This document shows, piece after piece, positions 25-11,355 of a stretch of DNA of 12,461 bases; within the stretch, counting starts at the first letter, position 1, and each line of letters starts with the position of its first letter. The notes beneath the pieces are model-generated. The model searched no databases. It saw only the letters and a list, made by a program, of their open reading frames with translations, and was not told the DNA's origin. The DNA comes from a virus. The stretch lies in UHGV virus genome UHGV-0232909; one strand, written 5' to 3'. The translations under genes were made by a program, and so were the position numbers.

Positions 25-321
25 GTGAATGAAACGGATGCTGAATACCTGGTGCGTAAATTTGATGCGCTTGAAGCTAAATGTGCAGCACTGGAAAACA
101 AAGTAATACCAGTGTCAGCTGAACTGCCGCCAGCGAATGAAAGTGTTCTGTTATTTGATGCTAATGGAGAAGGCTGGCTGATTGGCTGGCGTTCTCTCTG
201 GTATACATGGGGGCAAAAAGAAACCGGAGAATGGCAGTGGACATTTCAGGTCGGGGACCTTGAAAACGTCAACATCACTCACTGGGCAGTAATGCCAAAA
301 GCACCGGAGGCTGGAGCATAA
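25..321 (+). CDS. DUF551-like phage early protein (start uncertain; frame is open to the window edge)
   Basis: 98-aa ORF beginning at a GTG; the same frame is open back to base 1, so the true start may lie upstream. Trp-rich C-terminal half ending ...ITHWAVMPKAPE resembles the DUF551 signature of lambdoid/P22-like early-region proteins. Stop TAA overlaps the next ATG (TAATG at 319-323). Confidence 0.55.
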   Translation: MNETDAEYLVRKFDALEAKCAALENKVIPVSAELPPANESVLLFDANGEGWLIGWRSLWYTWGQKETGEWQWTFQVGDLENVNITHWAVMPKAPEAGA

Positions 322-1130
322 TGACCACATTTACCGATAAAGAACTGATTAAAGAAATCAAAGAACGAATCAGCAGCATGGACGTGCGAGACAATGTTGA
401 GCGCCGTGCTTATGAAATTGCTCTGGCATCGCTGGAAGAGGATCCGGTGGCATGGCTGCATTCAGACAATGGCTTAGGTATTCCGGCAATAACCAGGAGT
501 AAAAACATTGCTGACAGTTGGTTATCAAAGGGCTGGTATGTTCAGCCGCTATATATAGCTAAGCCAGTGCCGGTGGTGCCAGATGCTCGTCCGTCTTTAA
601 ATAATGGCATAGTCGGTTTTGATGAAGGCTGGAACGCCTGCCGCGCTGCCATGCTCTATGGTGCCGTACCTGCAAGCCAGGCTTACAAGTTGCCACAAAC
701 GCAGTTTAAACAGGTTGCTGACCTCTACGAAATGCAATTTGATGACGGTCGCACTTGTGCCTTTCACACTGATGCGCAAAAGGCTGTGCAATGGCTTCAG
801 GCGTGCGACGGAAACAGGGTTCAGGAATACGTTAAGCTGGAACGATTGCAGAACGCACTGTCTGGCAACTCTCCGGTAACTCCGGATGGTTGGGTTATGG
901 TGCCGAAGAGACTAACAGCCGAGAACGGCGCTAAGGGGGCGCTATCCGGTGAATTTTCAGAAACTACGTTTATAAGCTGCCTGGAATGCTTTGGCGATGA
1001 TGATTGCGATACCTGTGACGGGAGCGGACGTATTGAAATTAAAGTGCCAGTCACGTGGTCGACCATAAAATCTATCTGGGATAAAGGTATCGAGTATTTT
1101 GCAGCAAAACCATCACAAGAGGTGAAGTGA
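321..1130 (+). CDS. hypothetical phage early protein with C-terminal CxxC-x5-CxxCxGxG zinc-ribbon motif
   Basis: 269-aa ORF with ATG at 321 and GGAG 4 nt upstream. C-terminus CLECFGDDDCDTCDGSGRIEIK is a DnaJ-like zinc-finger motif. Its stop TGA (1128-1130) overlaps the ATG of the exonuclease gene. No family recognised for the N-terminal 200 aa. Confidence 0.6.
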   Translation: MTTFTDKELIKEIKERISSMDVRDNVERRAYEIALASLEEDPVAWLHSDNGLGIPAITRSKNIADSWLSKGWYVQPLYIAKPVPVVPDARPSLNNGIVGFDEGWNACRAAMLYGAVPASQAYKLPQTQFKQVADLYEMQFDDGRTCAFHTDAQKAVQWLQACDGNRVQEYVKLERLQNALSGNSPVTPDGWVMVPKRLTAENGAKGALSGEFSETTFISCLECFGDDDCDTCDGSGRIEIKVPVTWSTIKSIWDKGIEYFAAKPSQEVK

Positions 1131-1702
1131 TGAACAACTTAATGATCGACCTTGAGACGATGGGGAAAAATAAGGATGCACCGATCGTTTCCATTGGCGC
1201 GGTGTTCTTCACTCCAGAAACCGGAGACATCGGACAAGAATTCTATACGGTTGTTAGCCTGGAAAGTGCTATGGGGCAAGGAGCTACACCTGACGGCGAT
1301 ACCATCCTGTGGTGGTTGAAACAAAGCCCTGAAGCACGAGCTGCAATCTGTATTGATGATACTTTGTCGATCAGCGATGCTCTCTCAGAACTAAATCATT
1401 TCATTAACCGGCACGCAGACAATACGAAATATTTAAAAGTCTGGGGTAACGGAGCCACCTTCGACAACGTAATTTTACGTGGAGCTTATGAGCGAGCAGG
1501 ACAAATCTGCCCGTGGGCATACTGGAATGACCACGATGTACGCACGATCGTTACGCTTGGGCGTTCCATCGGATTCGACCCCAAAATGGACATGCCTTTC
1601 GATGGCGAACGGCACAACGCCCTGGCTGATGCCCGTCATCAGGCAAAATATGTTTCCGCTATCTGGCAGAAATTAATTCCTGCCACCAGCACAGAATTAT
1701 GA
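1130..1702 (+). CDS. DEDDh-family 3'-5' exonuclease (DnaQ/RNase T-like), phage-encoded
   Basis: Exo I motif MIDLETMG (D-x-E), Exo II motif WGNGATFDNVIL, Exo III motif HNALADARHQAKY (H-x4-D) are all present in order. The ORF track starts at GTG 1127; ATG at 1130 with GAGG at 1118-1121 is the more likely start. Confidence 0.85.
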   Translation: MNNLMIDLETMGKNKDAPIVSIGAVFFTPETGDIGQEFYTVVSLESAMGQGATPDGDTILWWLKQSPEARAAICIDDTLSISDALSELNHFINRHADNTKYLKVWGNGATFDNVILRGAYERAGQICPWAYWNDHDVRTIVTLGRSIGFDPKMDMPFDGERHNALADARHQAKYVSAIWQKLIPATSTEL

Positions 1703-1738
1703 TTTTCCCGGGTGCAGCCGGTTTTGATGGAGAAAATT

Positions 1739-2020
1739 ATGAACACCTTGTTTTTACTGATGGCTGAATTCAATACCCCTAACATTGAACTCTCAGCAGT
1801 TAGCCAAAAGTACTTTGGCATGAGTCCAGCCACGGCAGAAGCAAAAGCAAACGCTTGTAAGTTGCCCGTTCCAACATATCGCATCGGCACATCACAAAAA
1901 GCAAAACGTTGCATCAATATTCAGGATCTTGCGGAATACATAGACAAAAGACGAGAAGAAGGACGTATCGAGTGGGAACAGGTCAGAACAAGCAAACAGA
2001 AGGGCAAAGAACATCACTAA
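1739..2020 (+). CDS. PrtN/excisionase-like small DNA-binding protein (putative Xis)
   Basis: N-terminus MNTLFLLMAEF... is typical of the PrtN / prophage excisionase-like family. GGAG at 1729-1732 sits 6 nt before ATG 1739; the longer ORF-track version starts at GTG 1712 without an RBS. Located upstream of, and in the same orientation as, the integrase. Confidence 0.65.
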   Translation: MNTLFLLMAEFNTPNIELSAVSQKYFGMSPATAEAKANACKLPVPTYRIGTSQKAKRCINIQDLAEYIDKRREEGRIEWEQVRTSKQKGKEHH

Positions 2021-2022
2021 AT

Positions 2023-2050
2023 AAAAAACCCGCCTAAAGGCGGGTTTTCA
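2023..2050. terminator. bidirectional rho-independent terminator
   Basis: AAAAAA-CCCGCC-TAAA-GGCGGG-TTTT: a perfect 6-bp GC stem (2029-2034 / 2039-2044) with a 4-nt loop, flanked by an A-run upstream and a T-run downstream, so it gives a U-tract on either strand. It lies between the convergent genes ending at 2020 (+) and 2068 (-). Confidence 0.7.
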
Positions 2051-2067
2051 AAAAGCACCAGCTATGA

Positions 2068-2241
2068 TCATGCTGCTTTGCGACGACGAAGCTTACCCTG
2101 CTGCTCTTTACCAGAGACAGTAGCGTGAGTGAACGCATTATGAGCAGCCTTCATCAGAACTTCAACAGCAGCACCCATACCTGCGAATGCTTTCATTGTG
2201 TCGAACTTAACCTGTGGCTTGGTTGCTTTTTGATCTTCCAT
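2068..2241 (-). CDS. small basic-tailed protein (57 aa), third gene of the minus-strand accessory cassette; absent from the ORF track
   Basis: Hand translation of the minus strand: MEDQKATKPQVKFDTMKAFAGMGAAVEVLMKAAHNAFTHATVSGKEQQGKLRRRKAA. A strong SD (AGGAG) sits 7 nt upstream of the ATG (ATG = complement of 2239-2241). Stop at 2068-2070, immediately followed by the bidirectional terminator. Confidence 0.45.
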   Translation of the reverse strand: MEDQKATKPQVKFDTMKAFAGMGAAVEVLMKAAHNAFTHATVSGKEQQGKLRRRKAA

Positions 2242-2280
2242 AGAAAACTCCTGAAGTTATACCGAAACAATTCCTGTTGT

Positions 2281-2700
2281 TTACTCATCATCAATAGATG
2301 ATACGCAATATTTATTTTTAAATTTAAGGTTCTTTGGCGTAACTTCATCAGAGATATCAAAACCGTCCAGAATTCTATTGAATGTAGCTTCTGGCATATC
2401 ATCATGAACAGAAATCTCACCCGATCGCTGCTTTCTAACCATGTTATCCACTCGCCAAATTATAGCTTCAGCGTAAACAACATAACTTGGATGCTTGATA
2501 AAGCGATGATCACCAGAATTCAAGATGCAAGACGGATCGTGGGGGACACCATCCTTGATACTAGAAATATTAACAACTAAAACACAATAACAATCGTTAA
2601 CGGGGTAATAAACAGGATCATTACAAATCACATGAAGATGATTGCATGGCCCAGTTGGGGCAAGCACAGTTCCTTTCCTGTATGGCTGATAATCCGTCAT
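2281..2700 (-). CDS. unknown 139-aa protein translationally coupled to the Panacea-domain gene (candidate toxin/effector)
   Basis: ATGA overlap with the upstream gene (stop/start share 2697-2700). No recognised family. Cys/His-rich N-terminal half (CNHLHVICNDP...DCYC...DPSC...DHRFIKHPS) and acidic C-terminus (SSIDDE). AT-rich codon usage unlike the flanking phage genes. Confidence 0.65.
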   Translation of the reverse strand: MTDYQPYRKGTVLAPTGPCNHLHVICNDPVYYPVNDCYCVLVVNISSIKDGVPHDPSCILNSGDHRFIKHPSYVVYAEAIIWRVDNMVRKQRSGEISVHDDMPEATFNRILDGFDISDEVTPKNLKFKNKYCVSSIDDE

Positions 2701-3269
2701 GATAATTGCAAAGAAAATTCCTTAAGTTTCTGAGATTCTTCCATTTTGCCAATTATGCGATTAGCCTCATCCTCGCTTTTACCCTCACTGATCAGCATTT
2801 CTTTCAGGTCTATAGGCTTACGAGAATTGCCAGGATCGTGCCACTCTGGACAAACGCTTTCTAAATGCGTCATATTTGCGAGATCAAATCGGTTCATATG
2901 CCCATACCGAGAATAGATTTCATCTAAAATCCGGATATCTGCACGACTCAATTCATCAAAGACCTCGTCTGCATCCATTTCCCTCGGATCTGAACGCAAC
3001 GATACATTATGCCCGTTCGTCTCTATCAAGTTGTACCAGTAGTCACCAATGCCTTCAGCCTTACCGCGAATCAAGTTCAGCGTATTCGACATGACTGGTC
3101 CAAATTTCATAGAGTAAAGGCTATCTTCGCCGATCATCCTGCCATGCTTCAAAATCGACTGGCGGTTAGACAGATAGAGCAACTTCATCAATTTCAGATA
3201 TGCCATGCGCCCACCTCGCTTAAGAAGTAGGTATGCAGCCATTTGAGCTACTTTTTCTTCGCAAAACAT
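2697..3269 (-). CDS. Panacea-domain protein (SocA/PanA-like; DUF4065), putative antitoxin
   Basis: 190-aa ORF. The segment AAYLLLKRGG-RMAYLKLMKLLYLSN...KFGPV matches the Panacea-domain core pattern (K-L-x-K-L-L-Y ... G-P-V). GAGG lies upstream of the ATG (complement of 3267-3269). First gene of a three-gene minus-strand operon. Confidence 0.75.
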   Translation of the reverse strand: MFCEEKVAQMAAYLLLKRGGRMAYLKLMKLLYLSNRQSILKHGRMIGEDSLYSMKFGPVMSNTLNLIRGKAEGIGDYWYNLIETNGHNVSLRSDPREMDADEVFDELSRADIRILDEIYSRYGHMNRFDLANMTHLESVCPEWHDPGNSRKPIDLKEMLISEGKSEDEANRIIGKMEESQKLKEFSLQLS

Positions 3270-3660
3270 ATAAGAAACCTCAAAGATAGTGAACTTTATA
3301 ATTATTCTCGATACTTCATGGGTTGCTTCATCACCAACACGAGCTTCTTATGGTGTGCCCACTTGGGCCTAAGCAACCAGTTACCTCGTTTGTCAAGTTT
3401 ATAGCTGGCTTTAACCATGGTCAATTGAAGTGATGAGCAAATGATGCTTTCTAAGAATAACAGGTTCCCAATAGGCTCCCACAAAGTGTATAACTAGTTG
3501 TTTTTCAAAAACGGTACATCCTATCGAGCATAGGAGCAATGCTAAACCGAGAATTCCAGTAAACACCAGTTTTTTCAGGCATCACGCTGGTTTGATTAAT
3601 TTTTTGTGTTTCATGATTATCGTGCATTTTTGAACATTTCAGGCTATTTTTCTCGCATTA

Positions 3661-3696
3661 GGTTCCCGCACAGGTTCCCACGTTTTATGGGAACCC
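3661..3696. promoter_or_regulatory. cluster of GGTTCCC(A) repeats immediately upstream of int (candidate operator or integrase arm-type sites)
   Basis: GGTTCCC at 3661-3667 and 3673-3679 (direct) and GGGAACC at 3689-3695 (inverted), giving the palindrome GGTTCCCA-cgtttta-TGGGAACC. A second pair, CAGGTTCCCA / AGGCTCCCA, lies at 3461-3480. The int RBS (GAGG, 3705-3708) and ATG (3716) follow directly. Confidence 0.3.
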
Positions 3697-3715
3697 GAAA
3701 TAACGAGGTCGTGTA

Positions 3716-4813
3716 ATGGCGTACTATAACATAGAGAAACGACTAAAATCCGATGGCACACCACGCTATCGCTGTAATGTGATTATCAAAGAAAAAGGTG
3801 TTATCACTTACAGGGAAAGCAAAACATTCCCTAAACATGCTCATGCCAAAACATGGGGCACACAGAAAGTGATGGAATTAGATCTATATGGCATTCCATC
3901 ATCAAATGCAGTTGACGGACTTACAGTCCGTGACTTACTACACAAATATTTAAATGACCCAAATGCCGGAGGTAAAGCAGGCCGTACTAAAAGATATGTG
4001 CTGGAACTGCTTATGGATAGTGACATCTCCGCGATCAAACTATCTGAACTGACAGAAAATGACGTAATTGAACATTGCAGGCTAAGAAACAACGCTGGCG
4101 CAGGTCCAGCAACAGTCAGCCACGATGTTAGTTATCTTGGCAGTGTTCTGGATGCGGCCAAACCTGTATACGGAATTAATTACACATCAAACCCGGCGAA
4201 AAGTGCTCGTCCATATCTACTTAAACTTGGTTTGATTGGTAAATCAAACCGTCGTAATCGTAGACCAGCATCTGATGAACTGGACATGCTCATTGAAGGC
4301 CTTCAACAACGATCTACTCATAAATGCTCAAAAATTCCGTTCGTTGATATCCTCAAATTTTCTGTGTGGTCCTGTATGCGAATCGGAGAAGTATGCCGGT
4401 TACGATGGGAAGATCTCGACCAGGAACAAAAATCTATACTCGTAAGAGACAGGAAAGATCCACGCAAAAAGGAAGGCAACCACATGAAAGTAGCCTTGCT
4501 TGGGGAAGCCTGGGATATCGTCCAACGACAGCCCAAAAAATCGGAATTCATTTTTCCATATAACAGCACTTCTATTACTGCGGGATTTCAGAGGGTAAGA
4601 AGCAAATTAGGTATTAAGGATCTGCGATACCATGATTTGCGTAGAGAAGGGGCAAGTCGCTTATTTGAGGCTGGTTTTAGTATTGAGGAAGTAGCCCAGG
4701 TTACAGGGCATCGTTCATTAAACGTGCTATGGCAGGTATATACCGAACTGTATCCGAAATCTTTACATAATCGTTTTGAAGAGCTCCAAAGGAGCAGAAA
4801 TAAGACCCCTTGA
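3716..4813 (+). CDS. int: tyrosine-type site-specific integrase
   Basis: 365-aa ORF with RBS GAGG 7 nt upstream. Carries the conserved tyrosine-recombinase boxes: MRIGEVCRLRWEDLD (Arg box), HDLRREGASRL (H-x-x-R) and a C-terminal GHRSLNVLWQVYTELY with the candidate catalytic Tyr. Confidence 0.9.
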   Translation: MAYYNIEKRLKSDGTPRYRCNVIIKEKGVITYRESKTFPKHAHAKTWGTQKVMELDLYGIPSSNAVDGLTVRDLLHKYLNDPNAGGKAGRTKRYVLELLMDSDISAIKLSELTENDVIEHCRLRNNAGAGPATVSHDVSYLGSVLDAAKPVYGINYTSNPAKSARPYLLKLGLIGKSNRRNRRPASDELDMLIEGLQQRSTHKCSKIPFVDILKFSVWSCMRIGEVCRLRWEDLDQEQKSILVRDRKDPRKKEGNHMKVALLGEAWDIVQRQPKKSEFIFPYNSTSITAGFQRVRSKLGIKDLRYHDLRREGASRLFEAGFSIEEVAQVTGHRSLNVLWQVYTELYPKSLHNRFEELQRSRNKTP

Positions 4814-4861
4814 CACTGTTTATCCATACAGTTAAAAATAATACTGTATACAAACACAGTA
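4810..4861 (+). promoter_or_regulatory. SOS-regulated promoter: TTGACA -35 hexamer plus two LexA boxes (CTGT-N8-ACAG)
   Basis: TTGACA at 4810-4815 overlaps the int stop codon. LexA-like box 1 is caCTGTttatccatACAGtt (4814-4833). Box 2 is taCTGTatacaaacACAGta (4842-4861), a near-consensus SOS box lying between the promoter and the RBS AGAGGG (4863-4868) of the DinI-like gene. Confidence 0.6.
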
Positions 4862-4874
4862 TAGAGGGACTTTT

Positions 4875-5123
4875 ATGCGTATTGAAATCTGCATAGCCAA
4901 AGAAAAAATGACTAAAATGCCAACCGGTGCTGTGGATGCGTTAAAGGAAGAATTAACCCGACGCATCAGTAAACGTTATGACGATGTAGAGGTGATCGTA
5001 AAAGCCACCAGCAACGATGGCCTTTCTGTTACACGCACCGCAGATAAGGATTCTGCAAAAACTTTTGTTCAGGAGACTCTGAAAGATACCTGGGAATCTG
5101 CTGACGAGTGGTTTGTTCACTAA
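4875..5123 (+). CDS. dinI: DinI-family DNA-damage-inducible protein (phage-borne paralogue)
   Basis: 82-aa protein [31 protein letters not shown]...[16 protein letters not shown] aligns along its whole length with E. coli DinI from memory (MRIEVTIAK...QETWESADDWFV). Preceded by LexA boxes and a good RBS. Confidence 0.85.
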
Positions 5124-5190
5124 TTAACACGTAAAATCGGTAACGGCTGGAAATCATTCAATAATCGCACTATCGAAAGTTCGCCAGCCA

Positions 5191-5226
5191 GCCGCAGCAC
5201 GTTCTTGCATACGACGTGGCTGCGGC
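5191..5226. other. extended imperfect stem-loop between the DinI-like gene and the invertase remnant
   Basis: GCCGCAGC (5191-5198) pairs with GCTGCGGC (5219-5226); the inner CACGT/ACGTG also pair, giving a stem of about 12 bp with one bulge and an 11-nt loop. No clear U-tract on either strand, so it is not a canonical intrinsic terminator. Confidence 0.35.
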
Positions 5227-5266
5227 TTCCAACATTAGACAAATAACTCTTTAAATTGCTTTTAAA

Positions 5267-5635
5267 TTATTTCGTTTGAATGCCAGTAACAGGAAATCGT
5301 TTATATAGGGTTGATAGCCCAACGTTATAGATACGTGCAACATAACGCCGTGATTTCCCTGCCGCTATGAGCGCTCCCATCTGTTGCCACTGCTCGTCGC
5401 TAAACTTCGGTCTACGCCCACCAATCCGGCCTTTGGATCTGGCAATAGCCAAACCAGCTAAAGTTCGCTCGCTATTCAAATCAGATTCATACTGCGCAGC
5501 AGAAAGAATATTACGGAAATTATAGCGACCACTTGCTGTTTTCAGGTCTACGCCATCTGTAATACTCCGAAAATTAACACCTTTTTCGTGCAGATTTTGA
5601 AACATCAATAGCGCATGCAGCACATTTCTCCCTAA
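5267..5635 (-). pseudogene. pin: N-terminally truncated serine DNA invertase (Pin/Gin/Hin family) remnant
   Basis: The translation ...PLGRN-MLHALLMFQNLHEKGVNFRSITDGVDL...SKGRIGGRRPKFSDEQWQQ...YNVGLSTLYK matches the C-terminal two thirds of Pin/Gin (LGRSMKHLISLVGELRERGINFRSLTDSIDT...NKGRIGGRPPKL...ALSTLYKK). The roughly 70 N-terminal residues, including the catalytic Ser region, are absent; similarity stops near 5636 and no ATG-initiated full-length frame exists. Confidence 0.8.
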
Positions 5636-5641
5636 GGGGAA

Positions 5642-6001
5642 TTGTCTGCTGCTGGGGTTAGCGGTGGCGCTGCATCTGCTTCAGGATACATCACCATTCC
5701 GATGATTATTAATGGAGCAAGGCGGGTCTTATACATCCAATGGGGGGGATTTACAGGAACTACAGATAGCTCCGGCTCCAACGGAATATATGAAACCTCA
5801 AATATCACCGTCACCTGGACAGTTGCTTTCCCCAATGCGGTTTTCCAGGTGATAACAGGCGGTTCATCTGATGTTAGTGGTGTCGGGCAGCAAGAGATGG
5901 CATGGAGTCTGGGCAAAACAAAAACTAATGGGATTTTTGGTTTTCAATGCCGGACACCAAACGCATCGATGACTGGCTCATATCTTGTAATTGGTTATTA
6001 A
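5642..6001 (+). CDS. tail-fibre C-terminal (variable-domain) cassette lacking an N-terminal anchor domain; silent alternative segment
   Basis: Gly/Ser/Thr-rich beta-type sequence typical of phage tail-fibre distal domains. The frame opens at 5636 exactly where invertase homology ends on the other strand; only a TTG start (5642) is available. Directly followed by a tfa gene, the usual Sv'-U' arrangement of Mu G / P1 C / e14 invertible segments. Confidence 0.55.
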   Translation: MSAAGVSGGAASASGYITIPMIINGARRVLYIQWGGFTGTTDSSGSNGIYETSNITVTWTVAFPNAVFQVITGGSSDVSGVGQQEMAWSLGKTKTNGIFGFQCRTPNASMTGSYLVIGY

Positions 6002-6014
6002 ACGAGGACATCAC

Positions 6015-6491
6015 ATGAGATTTTCAGTTAGCACCCAATCATTCTACGATGATAATTACGAGGAAAACGCAGTAGTCAACGATTTACCCTCAGATGTTCA
6101 GGCGATAGATGATGAGCAATATGCTAGTTTTTTTAATGCAATAAATAGTGACCGGGTGGTTTATCTGGTTGCTGACGAATTCACGATTTCTCAACCCCGC
6201 CCCGATAAATACTATTCATGGGATATGACAAGTAAGACCTGGGCTATGACTGATGCTGCCGTAGCACAAAAGTCGGCAGACCTGATAGCTGATGCTGAGC
6301 TACGGAGAACAACGTCGTTATCAGCAGCAGGTATCGCAATATCCCCGCTGCAAGATGCCGTTGATCTGGGTATGGCTACAGATGTAGAAACGAGGCGACT
6401 GACAGAATGGAAAAAATATCGGGTATTGCTGATGCGTATTGATACATCAAAAGCCCCCGATATCGAATGGCCATCAGTACCGGTCAGTTGA
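6015..6491 (+). CDS. tfa: tail fibre assembly protein (Tfa/gpU-like chaperone)
   Basis: C-terminal region [50 protein letters not shown] matches the conserved Tfa C-terminus (APLQDAADL...[22 protein letters not shown]). ATG at 6015 with GAGGA 6 nt upstream; the ORF-track start at 5991 is a TTG. Confidence 0.8.
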   Translation: [158 protein letters not shown]

Positions 6492-6648
6492 CAAATGGAT
6501 TAGTAGACGATGATAAGAAGGTAACGTAGCGTTCGTCATCATCGTCTATTTCTTCAATGCCTGGATAAACAGTTTCATCTTGCGGACTGTAGAAAACCGC
6601 GCTGATCTCCTTTTTCGTGGAGTCTTTAAAAAGAACATAGATTTTCAT
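6484..6648 (-). CDS. small acidic ORF (54 aa) translationally coupled to the tail-fibre gene; absent from the ORF track
   Basis: Hand translation: [54 protein letters not shown]. Its ATG overlaps the tail-fibre stop (ATGA at 6646-6650). Its 3' end overlaps the convergent tfa gene by 8 nt (6484-6491). It occupies the position where a cognate tfa would be expected. Confidence 0.4.
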   Translation of the reverse strand: MKIYVLFKDSTKKEISAVFYSPQDETVYPGIEEIDDDDERYVTFLSSSTNPFVN

Positions 6649-7679
6649 CAGAATGAGTACCCCGTTGAATAAATTGTTGATGCCGTTGGTGTGCCGCCAA
6701 ACAAAATCTGGTAATAAATTTTCTGCGGCTCAGCAATCATCAAGTTTGAGAAAACAGATGAAATACCAGAGTTATTATTCCCCTGGGTTCGTAAGCCCAA
6801 CGGGTAGGATTTTGACGATACGGCAAATGAGTTATTTGTTGCTGGCGCTGTAGAGTTAATTAACCCCCAGCCTTCCATTGTTTTGGCGTTTTTAGGAATG
6901 GCTGAAGATACAGAAAGCTCAGTCAGTGTAGAAACCGTGTTTGTTACAGTGACAAGAGGTTGCTCTGGCGTGTTAATTTGCCTTCCCATCATCTCACCGA
7001 CAGTGAACTGGCTTGATGCTACTCTCCACACGCTAACCAATGCAGATGCCGTATAGCCTGCTGGTAGATTTGCACCGCCATAAATTTCTGGCGCGGTGGT
7101 CGTCGTTGCATTCACTGCAAGGAGTGCTGTTGCCCCGTTCGTCGGATTTAAAATTGCGTACAGGGCAATAAATCCAGCTGTCGGAACAGTCCCTGTGTCC
7201 ATACCTCCCGCGCCGGTTGTGCCGAGATTAATCGTCTTATTGAATGCACTTAGCCGGTATTGCTGCCCGGTGCTCGTCTCTACGATCAATTCATCGGCTG
7301 TAAAGGTTGCTGTCGATGATGCGGCGGCGATGCTCATACGCGCATTTCTGGATTGACCAACAACACCCGAAAACGATTCTCGCAATTGAAGGTTTTCGAG
7401 AGCCGTTTTCACCGTGCCATCCGATTTGATATCGCCAAACGGATTCTTGCGGCTTAACAGCAGCGCACGAAGCGCGGTAAGCAGCTGGTCGTGCCGCGCC
7501 TTCTCCAGACTGGCACCGGATGCCTCAACAACGCTACAAAGTTCTTCCTGCAACATGTCAAAGTAGTCATCATCCAGATCGGTGGCAGGGGTGCCGGTCT
7601 GGGGGTTACCACGGGTAAAACCGTTCTTACCCGCGCCGAACTTATCCTTCTGCGCGGTTTTCGTGTCTATACGATGCAT
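6648..7679 (-). CDS. tail fibre protein (complete, 343 aa)
   Basis: Conserved phage tail-fibre N-terminus [47 protein letters not shown]... followed by a Gly/Thr/Ala/Ser-rich distal domain. Last gene of the baseplate operon, in the position of Mu S / P2 H. Confidence 0.85.
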
Positions 7680-7682
7680 GGA

Positions 7683-8267
7683 TTACTCCGGATATTTAAA
7701 AATTACGTAGGTATGCGACGGGCAGAGTTTGTTAAGCACACACTCGACAACGGTGTCGCCCCAGATACGCAGTGCGGAATCACAGGGATCGCCACATGTC
7801 ATCCAGGTGGTGTTGGTGGTGGTTGGCATGTTGACCTGCCAGTAATACCGCCATTCCGGCGCATTCACCGCGTCAGTACAGGCCGATGAGCAGGTGAACG
7901 TGCTTTTGTCGTATCGCGTGATGGTGGCATCTGGTCTGCCCAGGGCAGCAAGCTGTGCAAGATAAAAATCCTCGTTGATGCCGCCCGCCAGGTTAACCTT
8001 CGCATCCAGCCGTTGCTGACGCTGGCGAAGGGTCTGCGTTCCCGCCGGAATACATTCATCCGGCAGACCGCACAGACGCTCCCAGCGGTTTATCAGTTCA
8101 GTGGTGGTGCGCGGATCCAGCTCCCGCATCAGGGCATCCGCACGCTGATGAACACGGGTTAATGACGGTGCCGCACCGGCAATCGCCGGATCGCTGGCTG
8201 ACCACGCCGGACCGGGCGGCAACAGTGCCGATAACAGGCGGATGTAATCATCGTTTGTCACGTCCAT
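7683..8267 (-). CDS. Mu gp48-like baseplate/tail protein (DUF2313, YmfQ-like)
   Basis: 194-aa protein in the position and size class of Mu gp48 / e14 YmfQ, directly upstream of the tail-fibre gene. Cys-rich C-terminal third. Overlaps the upstream gene by 10 nt. Confidence 0.8.
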
Positions 8268-9316
8268 GAAATCGTCCCCAGTACCGCCAGTTCGTTTTTC
8301 GCAATGGAGATATTGTCCACCGGTGCAAGCAACTGATGGCTGTATTCCCCGTTCGCACCGGAAATCGCCTCACTGATACGCGATACCTTCAGTTCTCCCT
8401 GCGGATAACCATCACGCAGCAGGAACGAACGCAACTCCGCGGTAATGGCAGCCCGTATTTCCGGTGTGTCCGGCGTCACGCGGATATGAAAATCCACCGT
8501 ATGTGCCACCGGCCTGAATACATACAAATCAGAGCCTGCCACCGGGGCCAGTGGCCCGATATGTTGTCTTGCTGCCGTTTCCGTTGATTCTTCCGGAATG
8601 GGATTAATCAGGTCACTGCTGGCAATCATCACACCGACAGTTCCCGTTCCCATCCAGTGACGGTATGTCCATGCGCGGGTAATGCCGGGCACTTCTTTAG
8701 CCCAGACGACATAGTCCCCGTCAGCCCCGCCCTGCGGCGTCCAGTAATACCGCTCAATGACGCGGGCGCGCCACGTTTCCAGATCTTCTGTATCAAATCC
8801 GCCTGTCAGGGTGTCAGTCACACCGGAAGACGGCAGACCATTCACCGGCGTGACCAGGATTAATGCCGTACCATCGTCAGCGTTACCGACCGCGCCTGTA
8901 GTTGAGCAAGTGATCGGCACACGCAGGACACCACCGGAGCTGGTTGCATCGGCAGTTGCCGTGTACTGAACCAGGTCATCGCGCTGAATCACGCTCCCGG
9001 CAGTCACCTTCAGGCCATCGCTGACACCTTCCCAGCGCATATACCCGCTGGCAGCCGTGGCCCCCTTGCGCGGACACCGTTTCATCGCAGCATGTCGCGC
9101 CAGCCAGGACTCATCGCACAGGTCAGGCAGCATATTCATTGCCAGATAATCGATGTACCCGTAAACCGTATGCAGCGCCGCCGCATACACCTTTGCCCGC
9201 ACGTCTTCATCCATGCGCCGGAGCGTGTCGCTGACGTCCAGCCTGGCGAATAAATCGTTACGGAGCATACTGATATTTTCTGCCAGCGTCGGGCGCTGAA
9301 ATTCACTGTCCGCCAT
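8258..9316 (-). CDS. baseplate J-like protein (Mu gp47 / P2 gpJ family)
   Basis: 352-aa protein in the conserved order gp46-gp47-gp48. ATG at the complement of 9314-9316. Overlaps both neighbours, indicating translational coupling. Confidence 0.85.
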
Positions 9317-9731
9317 GCGTTATCGCACTCCACAGATCATCAAAAGAAATCATTACCGGTCCGTCACGACGCCAGAGAGTGATACTGTTACCCAGTTCAT
9401 TAATCCCGGTGCGGTGGATATCCAGATCAATACGGGACACCACGCCGTCATCAATCATCCATTGCAGGCATTCGCGGATATACCCCCTTACCGTCAGCAC
9501 CAGCTGATTGGTCAGTTTGCTGCGCTGAAGCAGCCACAGTCGGGAGCCGTAACGGTCATTCTGTACCGCAGGCCAGGTATCCCCCCACCATCCCATCGGG
9601 ACGTCGGCGTTGTCATCAGGCTCCGCCCGCCGCCAGGTAAACAGGGAAATCACCACGGCGCGGGTCAGCGGATCCAGCGGTGCGCTGGCGCAGGTGCGTT
9701 TACCGTTCACCGTCAGCCACAGTTCCATCAT
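9303..9731 (-). CDS. Mu gp46-like baseplate protein (GP46 / gpW-gp25 class)
   Basis: 142-aa protein between the gpV-like and J-like genes. Start ATGATGA overlaps the stop of the upstream gene. Confidence 0.8.
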   Translation of the reverse strand: MMELWLTVNGKRTCASAPLDPLTRAVVISLFTWRRAEPDDNADVPMGWWGDTWPAVQNDRYGSRLWLLQRSKLTNQLVLTVRGYIRECLQWMIDDGVVSRIDLDIHRTGINELGNSITLWRRDGPVMISFDDLWSAITHGGQ

Positions 9732-10276
9732 GCCTCCATCGCTTTATCAGGTTTGTCGGTGTTACTGCCCTGACCGTTCTCTCTGTGACGATGCCCGTTA
9801 TAGGCAAGCCGCATCGCTGACATGGTGGTGCCGCTGGAGTCGCACAGGTCTTTCACCTGTCCTGTCACTTCCAGGTCCATTTCAAAACGTGCTTTAGGTG
9901 AATTGCGAAACGTGATCGTTTTACCTGCACCGTCCACCACGATCCCCTCCCGGGTCAGCGTCACGGACTGCCCCTGATCGTCATAGACAGCCACCTCACC
10001 CGTCTGCAGCCCTTTCAGGCGGTAGCGCCGGTCCGACACCGTAACAACCACCGCATGAGAACGGTCGCCATCCGGAAACAACACCACCGCTTCCGCACCG
10101 CTGTTTGCCCTTGCGGTAAAACCGTAGGGTTCAAGATGTTCAACCCCGGCTTTGGGTTCACCGGCAATCAGGGACACATCCACGGTCTGACATTTCGTGG
10201 CGGCACTGATGCTTTTCACCACGGCCCGCCCAATCAGGCCGAGGAGTTGTCGCTGCATGGCTTCAATCGTCCTCAT
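9728..10276 (-). CDS. baseplate assembly protein V / spike (Mu gp45-like)
   Basis: 182-aa protein with the size and position of Mu gp45 / P2 gpV. TGATG overlap with the upstream gene at 10274-10278. Confidence 0.8.
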   Translation of the reverse strand: MRTIEAMQRQLLGLIGRAVVKSISAATKCQTVDVSLIAGEPKAGVEHLEPYGFTARANSGAEAVVLFPDGDRSHAVVVTVSDRRYRLKGLQTGEVAVYDDQGQSVTLTREGIVVDGAGKTITFRNSPKARFEMDLEVTGQVKDLCDSSGTTMSAMRLAYNGHRHRENGQGSNTDKPDKAMEA

Positions 10277-11355
10277 CAGAACGGGTCCTCCTGTACTCTG
10301 GCTTTTTTCTTTTTCCGCGCGCCGGGGGCTTCGGGTTCAGGCAGATAAGCATCAGGTGGGCCGACACGGATTTCCGTCAGGGTGCCGTTCTGGTCCTGAG
10401 TAAACGTGACTTCCGAAACAAGCAGTTCGGTATTGTCGAAACCACAGACCGGATCAAAGACAATCACCCGCTGGTTGGGCTGCCACAGCGTACCGTTACC
10501 CTGTCGCCAGCCCTGCACCACATAGGTGGTTTCATCCGTCCGCGCCGCCCGTTGTCGGGCTTCAAAGTCCGCACGGGCAATACAGCCTGCTCCCGTAGCC
10601 TGCCCTGTCTGCCTGATATACATCGGACGGTAACGGGCAATAAATGCGTCCTCTGTGCGGGCCCGCAGCGCGGTGGTGGTGGCCTCACCGAAATCATCGT
10701 CGTTTCCGGCACGCTGCCCCGCCACCTGGTAAACAGAAAATCGCTCCCGGATACTCTTCTCCGTATCGCAGGAAAGGATGTTTTCCCCGAGTACCAGCGC
10801 AGTATGTGCCCGCGTTGAGCCAATACCGCCAATCACCAGCCTGCCGTGCGGGTCGTCGTAAGCCAGCGCCTGCTGCTGACCGAGTATTTTGTTGATTACC
10901 TCAATCACCGTTTCACCGTGATCAGGCTGAACATCAGGAATAACACCCGACGGCGCACCGCTGTTCACCACCTCAATGCCGAAAGGCGCAGCAAGCGCCT
11001 GCGCAATCTGCACCAGCGAGCGTCCGTTAAACTGTGTCGGTTCGGCTGCACAGTCAATCAGGTCAGCCGTCAGACTACGTCCGGCAATACCGGTGCTGAC
11101 CGAACGGGCATCGTAACGAACGGGCGTCGCCTCCACCCAGCCGGTGATCACCAGCTCATCACCAATCAGCACCTCCACTTTTGAACCGTTTTTAATGCGC
11201 GGCTGAAGCGTGGTGATACCCTCATCTCCCGGCCACTGGCGAGTGATCTCCACACTGAAATCCCGCGCCAGCCGTTCAATACCGGCACCGATGCGCACCG
11301 ATGTCCAGCCATTCCACTCCCGGCCATTTACCCGTAGCGTGACGTTATCGTTCAT
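10276..11355 (-). CDS. baseplate hub protein (Mu gp44/P, phage late control gene D family)
   Basis: 359-aa protein in the position of Mu P / P2 gpD, upstream of the gpV-like gene. Basic C-terminal tail (ARKKKKARVQEDPF). 4-nt overlap with the upstream gene. Confidence 0.8.
   Translation of the reverse strand: MNDNVTLRVNGREWNGWTSVRIGAGIERLARDFSVEITRQWPGDEGITTLQPRIKNGSKVEVLIGDELVITGWVEATPVRYDARSVSTGIAGRSLTADLIDCAAEPTQFNGRSLVQIAQALAAPFGIEVVNSGAPSGVIPDVQPDHGETVIEVINKILGQQQALAYDDPHGRLVIGGIGSTRAHTALVLGENILSCDTEKSIRERFSVYQVAGQRAGNDDDFGEATTTALRARTEDAFIARYRPMYIRQTGQATGAGCIARADFEARQRAARTDETTYVVQGWRQGNGTLWQPNQRVIVFDPVCGFDNTELLVSEVTFTQDQNGTLTEIRVGPPDAYLPEPEAPGARKKKKARVQEDPF

Follow-up and report, generated by a model that had tools for sequence, protein, structure and literature searches.

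The E. coli phage contig UHGV-0232909 (12,461 nt, referred to here as the window) very probably carries an invertible tail-fibre switch of the e14/Mu type that has been disabled, and locked in one orientation, by a single recent deletion of 274 bp. In the intact state, a 187-aa serine invertase is encoded just outside an invertible segment of roughly 1.75 kb and recombines two 26-bp sites that share a TT/AA core, one lying in the fibre gene and the other beside the invertase gene. Inversion joins the first 97 aa of the fibre, its constant N-terminal part, to one or the other receptor-binding C-terminal cassette, and behind each cassette lies a downstream gene of its own. Since the deletion, the switch has been without its recombinase, without its second site and probably without its enhancer, and neither its own enzyme nor a related invertase acting in trans from another prophage would be able to flip the segment; the 343-aa fibre would stay on, and the 121-codon cassette and its tfa gene would stay silent. 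The initial annotation of the window had listed the components of such a switch, and all of them are present (Table 1). The system is a known one and its decay is of an ordinary kind, here resolved to the base level.

Table 1. Features of the decayed fibre switch in the window
Feature	Position	Strand	Description
Invertase remnant	5267..5634	-	codons 66-187 (368 of 564 nt, the 3' two-thirds) of a serine invertase gene of the Din family
Called 118-aa ORF of the remnant	5623..5267	-	begins at Val70, an internal GTG
First 9 nt of a half-site-like 12-mer	5626..5634	+	TTCTCCCTA, from TTCTCCCTATCC inside the invertase gene; deletion ends after the ninth base
Deletion junction	5634/5635		274 bp of intact relatives missing; no microhomology
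Remnant of right crossover site	5635..5641	+	AGGGGAA; of inner half-site GGTTTAGGGGAA, only these outer 7 nt remain
Alternative fibre C-terminal cassette, presumably silent	5636..6001	+	121 codons and stop; Gp53-like_C (Pfam); apparently promoterless
Tail-fibre assembly gene of the cassette	6015..6491	+	158 aa; Pfam Caudo_TAP, E = 7.8e-28; phrog_188
54-aa ORF	6648..6484	-	phrog_20339; directly 3' of the expressed fibre, in the slot where a chaperone gene is expected
Expressed tail-fibre gene	7679..6648	-	343 aa; PHROG tail-fibre families
Remaining 26-bp crossover site	7377..7402	+	TTCTCGCAATTG AA GGTTTTCGAGAG; inside the fibre gene; now an orphan

The invertase remnant is the end of a gene that is found complete in close relatives. 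Window DNA from 5100 to 5634 agrees at every base (100%) with the 3' part of the 564-bp invertase gene that is intact in the sister Escherichia phage SKA5 (OR670062), which has a complete switch and is 99.8% identical to the window up to 5634 and again from 7374 on, and the intact gene of contig L006 is likewise 100% identical to the remnant at the nucleotide level up to 5634. The initial annotation had concluded that the N-terminal catalytic region is missing, and the domain content agrees: in a Pfam search, the Resolvase match of the 118-aa ORF was confined to profile positions 81-144 of 145, and the ORF lacks the D64/R65 motif and the Ser9 nucleophile, a residue that is essential in Gin (PMC3575834). 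What it keeps is helix E and the HTH_7 domain typical of Din-family invertases (residues 69-110, E = 3.1e-12); it has neither the catalytic N-terminal domain nor the full length of about 180-190 aa. The product of the intact allele is a full-length homologue of 187 aa, which carries the YVRVS(9)T motif and D64-R65 when aligned with PinE and Gin. Over 180 aa its identity is 56% with PinE and 51% with Gin; for the 109 aa retained in the window the values are 55% and 50%.

Identity to SKA5 ends at 5634 and identity to the fibre genes of P2-like phages begins at 5635, with a TAA at 5633-5635 spanning the junction; since the cassette frame is open from 5636, it does start where the invertase similarity ends, as had been noted from the window. 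An alignment (A1) with intact alleles carrying the same fibre (L006 and L009) contains a single gap, of 274 bp, with one end at invertase codon 66 and the other 5 nt into the inner half-site of the right crossover site. These 274 bp comprise invertase codons 1-65, with Ser9 and D64/R65, and a 59-bp spacer preceding the gene; from the right (invertase-proximal) site they include the complete outer half, the core and 5 nt of the inner half, so that the proposed deletion of the invertase 5' end together with the adjacent crossover site is confirmed. The spacer would presumably have held the invertase promoter. By homology of position with hin, the Fis-bound enhancer has probably been deleted too, as invertases require Fis and an enhancer in cis, which hin carries within the part of the gene that encodes the N-terminus (PMC2724282); a scan for Fis motifs did not place the enhancer by sequence.

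The same junction occurs in eight distinct contigs from different samples (the window, L005, L007, L008, L010, L012, L023 and L024), a count that leaves out L018, L019 and L026 as duplicates of L007, L005 and L008. The 21-mer across the junction was found in L005, L007, L008, L010 and L012 and is missing from the intact loci; the string of the intact right site is present, among the contigs compared, only in L006, L009 and L011. Across 5100-7700 (about 2.6 kb) the truncated and intact alleles differ by the gap and by two SNPs only, at 5164 and 5819, which marks the deletion as very recent, and the description of the switch as fossilised in the initial annotation overstates its age. Both alleles are natural, the identical 343-aa fibre being encoded on metagenome and isolate contigs with either the 118-aa or the 187-aa invertase. 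Not one of 5,426 complete E. coli genomes covers at least 80% of 5100-7700, so the allele is rare among finished genomes.

The fibre genes have the split organization expected of such a switch: the 5' part is constant and lies outside the segment, the alternative 3' cassettes lie within it, and their reading frames agree at the crossover core. The constant part of the expressed fibre (7679..7391) is 96% identical to aa 1-101 of e14 StfP, and its variable part spans from the crossover site, where the match to SfV and SKA5 stops, to the stop codon. The cassette on the opposite strand is open in the frame required for fusion at the core, and only the two initial codons (GL) of the variable part are missing from it; 108 of its 121 aa (89%) recur in the C-terminus of a P2-type fibre of 399 aa. 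The alternative receptor-binding domain has thus been retained, as had been suggested, and is presumably silent, with a likely effect on host range. The pair of convergent tfa genes proposed earlier stands for one member only. Whereas the gene that follows the silent cassette (called as 158 aa in all related contigs) is a Caudo_TAP gene, the one that follows the expressed fibre is not a canonical tfa: the 54-aa ORF gave no match in a Pfam search, hence no Caudo_TAP, and belongs to phrog_20339 (E = 3.3e-14, covering positions 2-50 of 62), a conserved phage family without assigned function that accompanies the same fibre tip in the P2-like phage L059 too. For annotation, the 119-aa 'Gp53-like' ORF is to be read as a silent cassette and the 118-aa 'recombinase' ORF as a pseudogene.

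Crossover sites had been postulated in the initial annotation without a location, and we can now place one intact site and seven nucleotides of the other. The inverted-repeat search that had been recommended for finding them yielded no pair of crossover sites in the window, because one site is gone and because the half-sites of the segment are dissimilar; it took a comparison with SKA5 and e14 to locate the remaining site. In its outer half (CTCTCGAAAACC) and its TT core, this site matches the e14 site in stfP exactly. Its inner half (TTCTCGCAATTG) deviates from the AAACC consensus beside the core, a departure despite which the site is evidently functional in the intact relatives L013 and L066. 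The intact right site, in L006 and L063, reads ATATTTGAAAGG TT GGTTTAGGGGAA, and half-site GGTTTAGGGGAA is also present in P2-like fibre genes. Scored with a half-site matrix, the intact L006 has two good sites (23.1 and 20.1) and the 12.4-kb window has one (23.1), its runner-up reaching 14.9 with a CG core inside a terminator-like palindrome. Two inverted 26-bp sites with an identical 2-bp core, TT/AA, are therefore found in the intact relatives and not in the window.

That the switch works when intact follows from the existence of relatives in the flipped state. The fusion protein predicted for the alternative orientation (Sc + GL + cassette) is encoded on L013, as protein P0001, with 100% identity and coverage, and the recombinant site of that contig is CTCTCGAAAACC TT GGTTTAGGGGAA. 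L013 ends within the invertible segment. In L066, an isolate assembly with the prophage at dusA, the whole segment is inverted, both reciprocal junctions are present and the invertase is intact; in L013 and L066 alike the inversion breakpoints fall exactly at the core dinucleotide. The intact allele thus occurs in both orientations, flipped in L013 and L066 and unflipped in L006, L009, L011, L060, L063 and L067. The truncated lineage is in one orientation in all eight distinct contigs, and no flipped copy of it was seen among the contigs and protein clusters examined. P0001 forms a cluster with a single member, which carries the Pro allele of the intact lineage, and has no member with the Thr allele that marks the truncated one. 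The evidence that the truncated lineage does not invert consists of these eight assembled contigs and this one protein-cluster check and, together with the lack of a second usable site, agrees with the earlier proposal that the phage is locked. Exact-pattern scans of IMG/VR for the deletion junction and both flipped junctions, and of JGI metagenomes for the reciprocal flipped junction, gave no match. Those collections do not contain this type of segment, and the contigs that have it, in ENA, Logan and NCBI, were all retrieved by exact-protein look-ups.

It could also be that the segment still flips, with an invertase such as PinE or PinQ provided in trans by another prophage and a substitute for the second site. 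Pin enzymes do work in trans on intact sites across prophages (PMC12529663), and the left site of the window is intact. However, only 7 nt of the second site are left, the best alternative in the window is the low-scoring sequence with a CG core described above, the region expected to carry the enhancer has been deleted and the truncated lineage has yielded no flipped copy, which makes continued flipping highly improbable. Another possibility is that the 118-aa ORF, made of helix E and the HTH, functions as a protein in its own right, for instance by binding crossover sites and blocking the invertases of other prophages, and has been kept for this reason. The ORF is open, and the fragment could be made, since the prediction placed no terminator-like site on its strand between fibre operon and remnant and since a GGGAG motif lies 4 nt before the GTG. 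Several different lesions, moreover, leave the same 118-aa ORF. This recurrence is nevertheless accounted for by the first usable start position, which confines breaks to a 36-nt interval between TTG-58 and GTG-70, and less of the gene is kept in other alleles (TF5, the '489' type and L064). As the ORF is 100% identical in DNA sequence to the 3' end of the full-length gene, there has been no time for selection, and a complete small protein, the alternative that the initial annotation had itself considered, is excluded. With a Resolvase match limited to the last 64 of 145 positions, a functional stand-alone fragment is very unlikely too. The chance that the junction is an assembly chimera of two phages is negligible. 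Invertible regions do often break assemblies, as the end of L013 inside the segment illustrates, but the identical junction was assembled independently in eight contigs from different samples and pipelines, and in L005 it sits in a chromosomal context, in a prophage integrated at dusA.

How the deletion arose is a separate matter, on which the position of its ends hints at the invertase itself having started the break. Both ends lie within facing sequences of the half-site type (TTCTCCCTA/TCC and GGTTT/AGGGGAA), and the 12-mer TTCTCCCTATCC, in the invertase gene, ranks second of 1400 12-mers in the intact 711-bp region on the half-site matrix, surpassed only by the true inner half-site. It is possible, though doubtful, that the invertase cut both strands at the right site without completing the reaction and that the ends were trimmed and joined, trimming being stopped by the DNA-binding domains of the invertase on the true inner half-site and on the quasi half-site in its own gene. 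The junction in A1, free of microhomology, is consistent with such a history, as is an independent deletion in L064. On the cassette side the L064 deletion stops in the same 3-nt stretch of the true inner half-site, and it does not derive from the lineage of the window, since it has intact-lineage alleles at 5819 and 6703. However, the breakpoints are 3 and 5 nt off the core, where a serine recombinase cuts, and at the other end of the L064 deletion there is no half-site-like sequence. Three independent truncations avoid the site altogether (TF5, with a 5-nt microhomology; the '489' type; and a rusA fusion, with a 6-nt microhomology), and an unbiased sample of 31 IMG/VR loci contained no break at the quasi-site. 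Breaks at the same spot in L017 and L025 do not establish it as a hot spot, because these contigs were retrieved by an exact look-up of the 118-aa ORF, a choice that leaves only the 36-nt interval for the break, and L025 in addition has a 6-nt microhomology. A clean invertase-mediated deletion between the quasi-site and the true site was rejected, since the junction falls 10 bp short of a clean hybrid site and the two cores differ (GA versus TT). We therefore put forward only tentatively, and as rather unlikely, the view that the switch was destroyed by its own recombinase, with the ends trimmed to invertase-protected DNA before joining. Were it general, serine-invertase switches would hold a built-in route to self-inactivation, which would help to explain why locked switches with a truncated invertase are frequent in prophages. 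Our understanding of the system is otherwise unchanged, and only the deletion ends inside half-sites pose a new mechanistic question.

Among known systems, the P segment of e14 in E. coli K-12 (stfP-tfaP-tfaE-stfE-pinE) has the same architecture and gene order as the window. The baseplate protein neighbouring the switch is 98.5% identical to YmfQ, and the fibre constant part, the outer half-site and the TT core are shared. On the other hand, the invertase shares no more than 56% identity with PinE, the two variable cassettes are unlike those of e14, and one of them is followed by the 54-aa phrog_20339 gene in place of a tfa. Whereas e14 is a cryptic remnant, the element hosting the switch of the window is a dusA-integrating phage with a Mu-like tail, here in its excised form; e14 still inverts (PMC12529663), unlike the window with its deleted invertase 5' end and second site. 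The G segment of phage Mu resembles the window in having the gin gene just outside the segment and reading away from it, two 26-bp sites, a split fibre gene S/S' with U/U' chaperones, and upstream baseplate genes (gp44-gp48), which in the window are Mu-like. It differs in the gix half-sites and core (TC/GA), in an invertase identity of 51% and in that the Mu switch is intact.

The closest comparison is with the intact sister alleles (SKA5, L006, L009, L060, L063 and L066). L006, L063 and similar contigs have the same invertible segment as the window, with the 187-aa invertase and both sites, and L066 represents the flipped state; SKA5 holds another segment, whose divergence starts exactly at the inner half-sites. 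The window and the sisters with the same segment, 274 bp and two SNPs apart, form a natural before-and-after pair in which the same phage with the same fibre has either an intact or a frozen switch, and which lends itself to studying the costs and benefits to a phage of abandoning fibre switching. Decayed switches with a truncated or interrupted invertase beside fibre and tfa genes are also found in E. coli prophages (strain TF5, strain CFSAN064036 and IMG/VR contigs), where RefSeq labels the invertases as partial recombinase pseudogenes. Their breakpoints and extents vary, and most have lost part of the silent half, whereas the window keeps the whole silent cassette. Since the same invertase allele has been inactivated independently in several other ways, locked switches are common; in the IMG/VR sample with this allele, about one in six loci is broken.

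The window comes from a temperate E. coli phage and covers its tail end together with the attachment region. Escherichia phage SKA5 matches it at 99.8% identity over 101-5634 and at 97.7% over 7374-10290, the 1.74 kb separating these blocks being different in the two phages. In SKA5 this interval is a complete switch, in which the 564-bp invertase gene is intact, the fibre cassette lacks a promoter, two tfa genes converge and a fibre gene is expressed. The window copy is a degenerate derivative of such an invertible tail-fibre switch. It failed the tests for an active one, having no nucleophile, a single site and a single orientation. The interpretation proposed in the initial annotation is thus supported, and we regard the finding as well resolved and of modest interest.

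Features of the window, with coordinates where available
Feature	Position	Strand	Remarks
Mu-like tail and baseplate genes (gp43-gp48 homologues)		-	upstream of fibre gene
Tail-fibre gene, 343 aa	7679..6648	-	after baseplate genes
Crossover site, 26 bp	7377-7402		TTCTCGCAATTG AA GGTTTTCGAGAG
Convergent ORF, 54 aa	6648..6484	-	phrog_20339, function not known
Caudo_TAP assembly gene	6015-6491	+	Pfam; downstream of cassette
Half-site remnant	5635-5641		AGGGGAA
Invertase ORF, 118 aa	5623..5267	-	Pfam Resolvase, last 64 positions only, and HTH_7
Imperfect hairpin	about 5197-5235		AGCCGCAGCACGT ... ACGTGGCTGCGGCT
DinI gene, tyrosine integrase, early genes			beyond switch region, in this order
attP configuration	3300-3720		boundary about 3524
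SocA_Panacea-domain protein, 190 aa	2697-3269	-	pair spans 2281-3269
139-aa protein	2281-2700	-	overlaps the preceding gene
GC-rich palindrome	2029-2054		CCCGCCTAAAGGCGGGTTTTCAAAAA

As had been proposed, the invertase ORF lacks the N-terminal catalytic region. Its Resolvase match is partial, and up to 5634 its DNA agrees at every base with the 3′ part of the invertase gene in SKA5 (100% identity). From 5635 onward the match switches to the 3′ end of P2-like phage fibre genes (89% DNA identity with Klebsiella phage 4LV2017; 108/121 aa between the cassette and an E. coli prophage fibre), and with a TAA at 5633-5635 the open frame of the cassette runs from 5636, so that it does begin where invertase similarity ends. 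The claim of convergent tfa genes stands in part: the plus-strand gene belongs to Caudo_TAP, whereas the minus-strand 54-aa ORF, which had no match in a Pfam search and is a member of phrog_20339, was rejected as a recognisable tfa. The phrog_20339 protein is conserved in phages and sits where the chaperone gene of the 343-aa fibre tip would be; since its gene accompanies that tip in SfV-like and P2-like phages alike, the protein is a candidate for a small chaperone of the fibre.

The remaining crossover site was placed by comparison with SKA5 and e14, and its outer half equals that of the site in e14 stfP. In P2-type fibre genes a site ending GGTTTAGGGGAA precedes the cassette, and only seven bases of this half-site are left in the window; a half-site scoring matrix finds one good site there versus two in an intact relative. 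A look-up of the 343-aa fibre protein for exact matches gave eight contigs, in five of which the invertase ORF has 118 aa and in the other three 187 aa. Aligned with two of the intact contigs, the window shows one gap only, of 274 bp (TTTCTCCCTA[TCCGATC ... GAAAGGTTGGTTT]AGGGGAATTG, gap in brackets), spanning both the invertase 5′ end and the adjacent crossover site, whose joint loss the initial annotation had postulated. Of the invertase gene 196 nt are gone (codons 1-65 and one more base), as is the spacer of 59 nt preceding its ATG; of the crossover site the deletion took the outer half-site ATATTTGAAAGG, the TT core and, from the inner half-site, the first 5 nt. The junction is identical in 5/5 truncated contigs and shared by two further loci (L023, L024), and the full site is present in 3/3 intact contigs. 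Because the alleles otherwise differ over 5100-7700 at 5164 and 5819 only, the deletion is recent. The difference at 5819, Pro-to-Thr in the silent cassette, is the sole coding difference between the lineages within the switch, and Thr, found in all truncated contigs and no intact one, marks the truncated lineage. The spacer itself (8065-8123 in the intact contig L006, between right crossover site and ATG) holds a perfect palindrome, CTTCTCCTGTTGTAAAAACAGGAGAAG, whose arms look like the outer portion of a half-site and which could serve as operator of the invertase.

The protein predicted to follow inversion, built as fibre aa 1-97, GL and the cassette, was found at 100% identity and 100% coverage (P0001), on a contig carrying gp48, the 220-aa fibre and tfa in order, with the recombinant site CTCTCGAAAACC TT GGTTTAGGGGAA; its protein cluster has one member, with the intact-lineage allele. 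A tfa protein look-up led to L066, an isolate assembly integrated at dusA, in which the entire 5635-7390 segment is inverted (99.9% identity) with breakpoints at the core dinucleotide, both reciprocal junctions and an intact invertase. Since three other loci (L060, L063, L067) carry the intact allele unflipped, this allele occurs in both orientations in nature. No flipped truncated allele was seen, every assembled contig found being in one orientation, which agrees with the proposal of a locked phage with a silent alternative cassette.

The full-length invertase aligns with PinE (56%) and Gin (51%) and keeps the YVRVS9T motif, Ser9 being the nucleophile in Gin (PMC3575834). Invertases of the Din-type group need Fis and a cis-acting enhancer, which in hin lies inside the part coding for the N terminus (PMC2724282), and the corresponding region is deleted in the window. 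Acting in trans, Pin enzymes can flip segments that belong to other prophages (PMC12529663), which requires two sites where the window has one. Because the catalytic domain and second site are lost, and the region expected by analogy to hold the enhancer is deleted, the segment is very probably locked, with the 343-aa fibre expressed and the 121-codon cassette and its tfa kept but unjoinable to the constant part.

As to the origin of the deletion, the invertase itself might have initiated breakage at the crossover site. The left end falls after base 9 of the 12-mer TTCTCCCTATCC, which in the intact region comes first among the non-sites when scored with the half-site matrix (rank 2 of 1400), and the right end 5 nt into the true inner half-site; both ends thus lie inside half-site-type sequences that face one another, with no microhomology at the junction. 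Moreover, the deletion in L064, which is independent because that locus has intact-lineage alleles at 5819 and 6703, has its cassette-side end within the same 3 nt. However, the ends lie 3 and 5 nt off the serine recombinase cut position, other truncations have their ends elsewhere, and the apparent hot spot at the 12-mer is largely an ascertainment effect; we consider a break started by the invertase possible but less likely than not.

Besides the window's 274-bp deletion, the same invertase allele has undergone at least seven independent inactivations: a 1-nt deletion that leaves the gene as two ORFs, of 62 aa and 118 aa (L020-L022), a rusA fusion with 6-nt microhomology (L025), a break within an unrelated island (L017), a 1.27-kb deletion with 5-nt microhomology (strain TF5), a deletion sparing just the last third of the gene (four IMG/VR contigs), an insert about 1.06 kb long (L041) and a near-complete deletion (L064). 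Of 31 IMG/VR loci that have the 3′ end of this gene in common, five are disrupted and one more is cut by the locus end, so locked switches are ordinary. Remnants of the same fibre region also occur at a second chromosomal locus, adjoining PBP5-like, GyrI-like and FUSC genes and devoid of DinI or integrase (L064 3560-3640; L014); one has nearly all of the invertase deleted, with a break in the same half-site as the window's, and the other is in flipped orientation and has lost the opposite half of the segment.

Among known systems the e14 P segment comes closest: YmfQ is 98.5% identical to the neighbouring baseplate protein, StfP 96% identical to the fibre constant part, and the outer half-site is identical, but the window lineage has an invertase and cassettes that differ from those of e14. 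The same invertible segment (99.9%), with the e14-like outer half-site TTTTCATAAACG, lies in two P2-like phages (L059, L065) behind a different invertase of their own, and window and SKA5 types (5635-7388) diverge exactly from the inner half-sites at both ends. Invertible segments in their entirety move between phages as modules, which fits the modular exchange already known.

The window is in the attP (excised) configuration, so it seems that a phage whose switch is locked can still excise or circularise. Left of 3524, integrated copies (L005, L008, L023, L060, L066) run into dusA-pspG-qor-dnaB, unlike the window, and in L007 and L006 phage early genes continue past the boundary, as in the window. 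Beside attP, the overlapping SocA_Panacea and 139-aa genes are arranged as modules of toxin-antitoxin or defence cargo typically are. The palindrome closing the early-gene block is terminator-like, with a T/A run; as a crossover site it was rejected, its second-best pseudo-site score being owed only to a GGTTTT half. The long hairpin separating the convergent dinI and invertase genes, missed by the terminator scan because of its 11-nt loop, is likely a bidirectional terminator.
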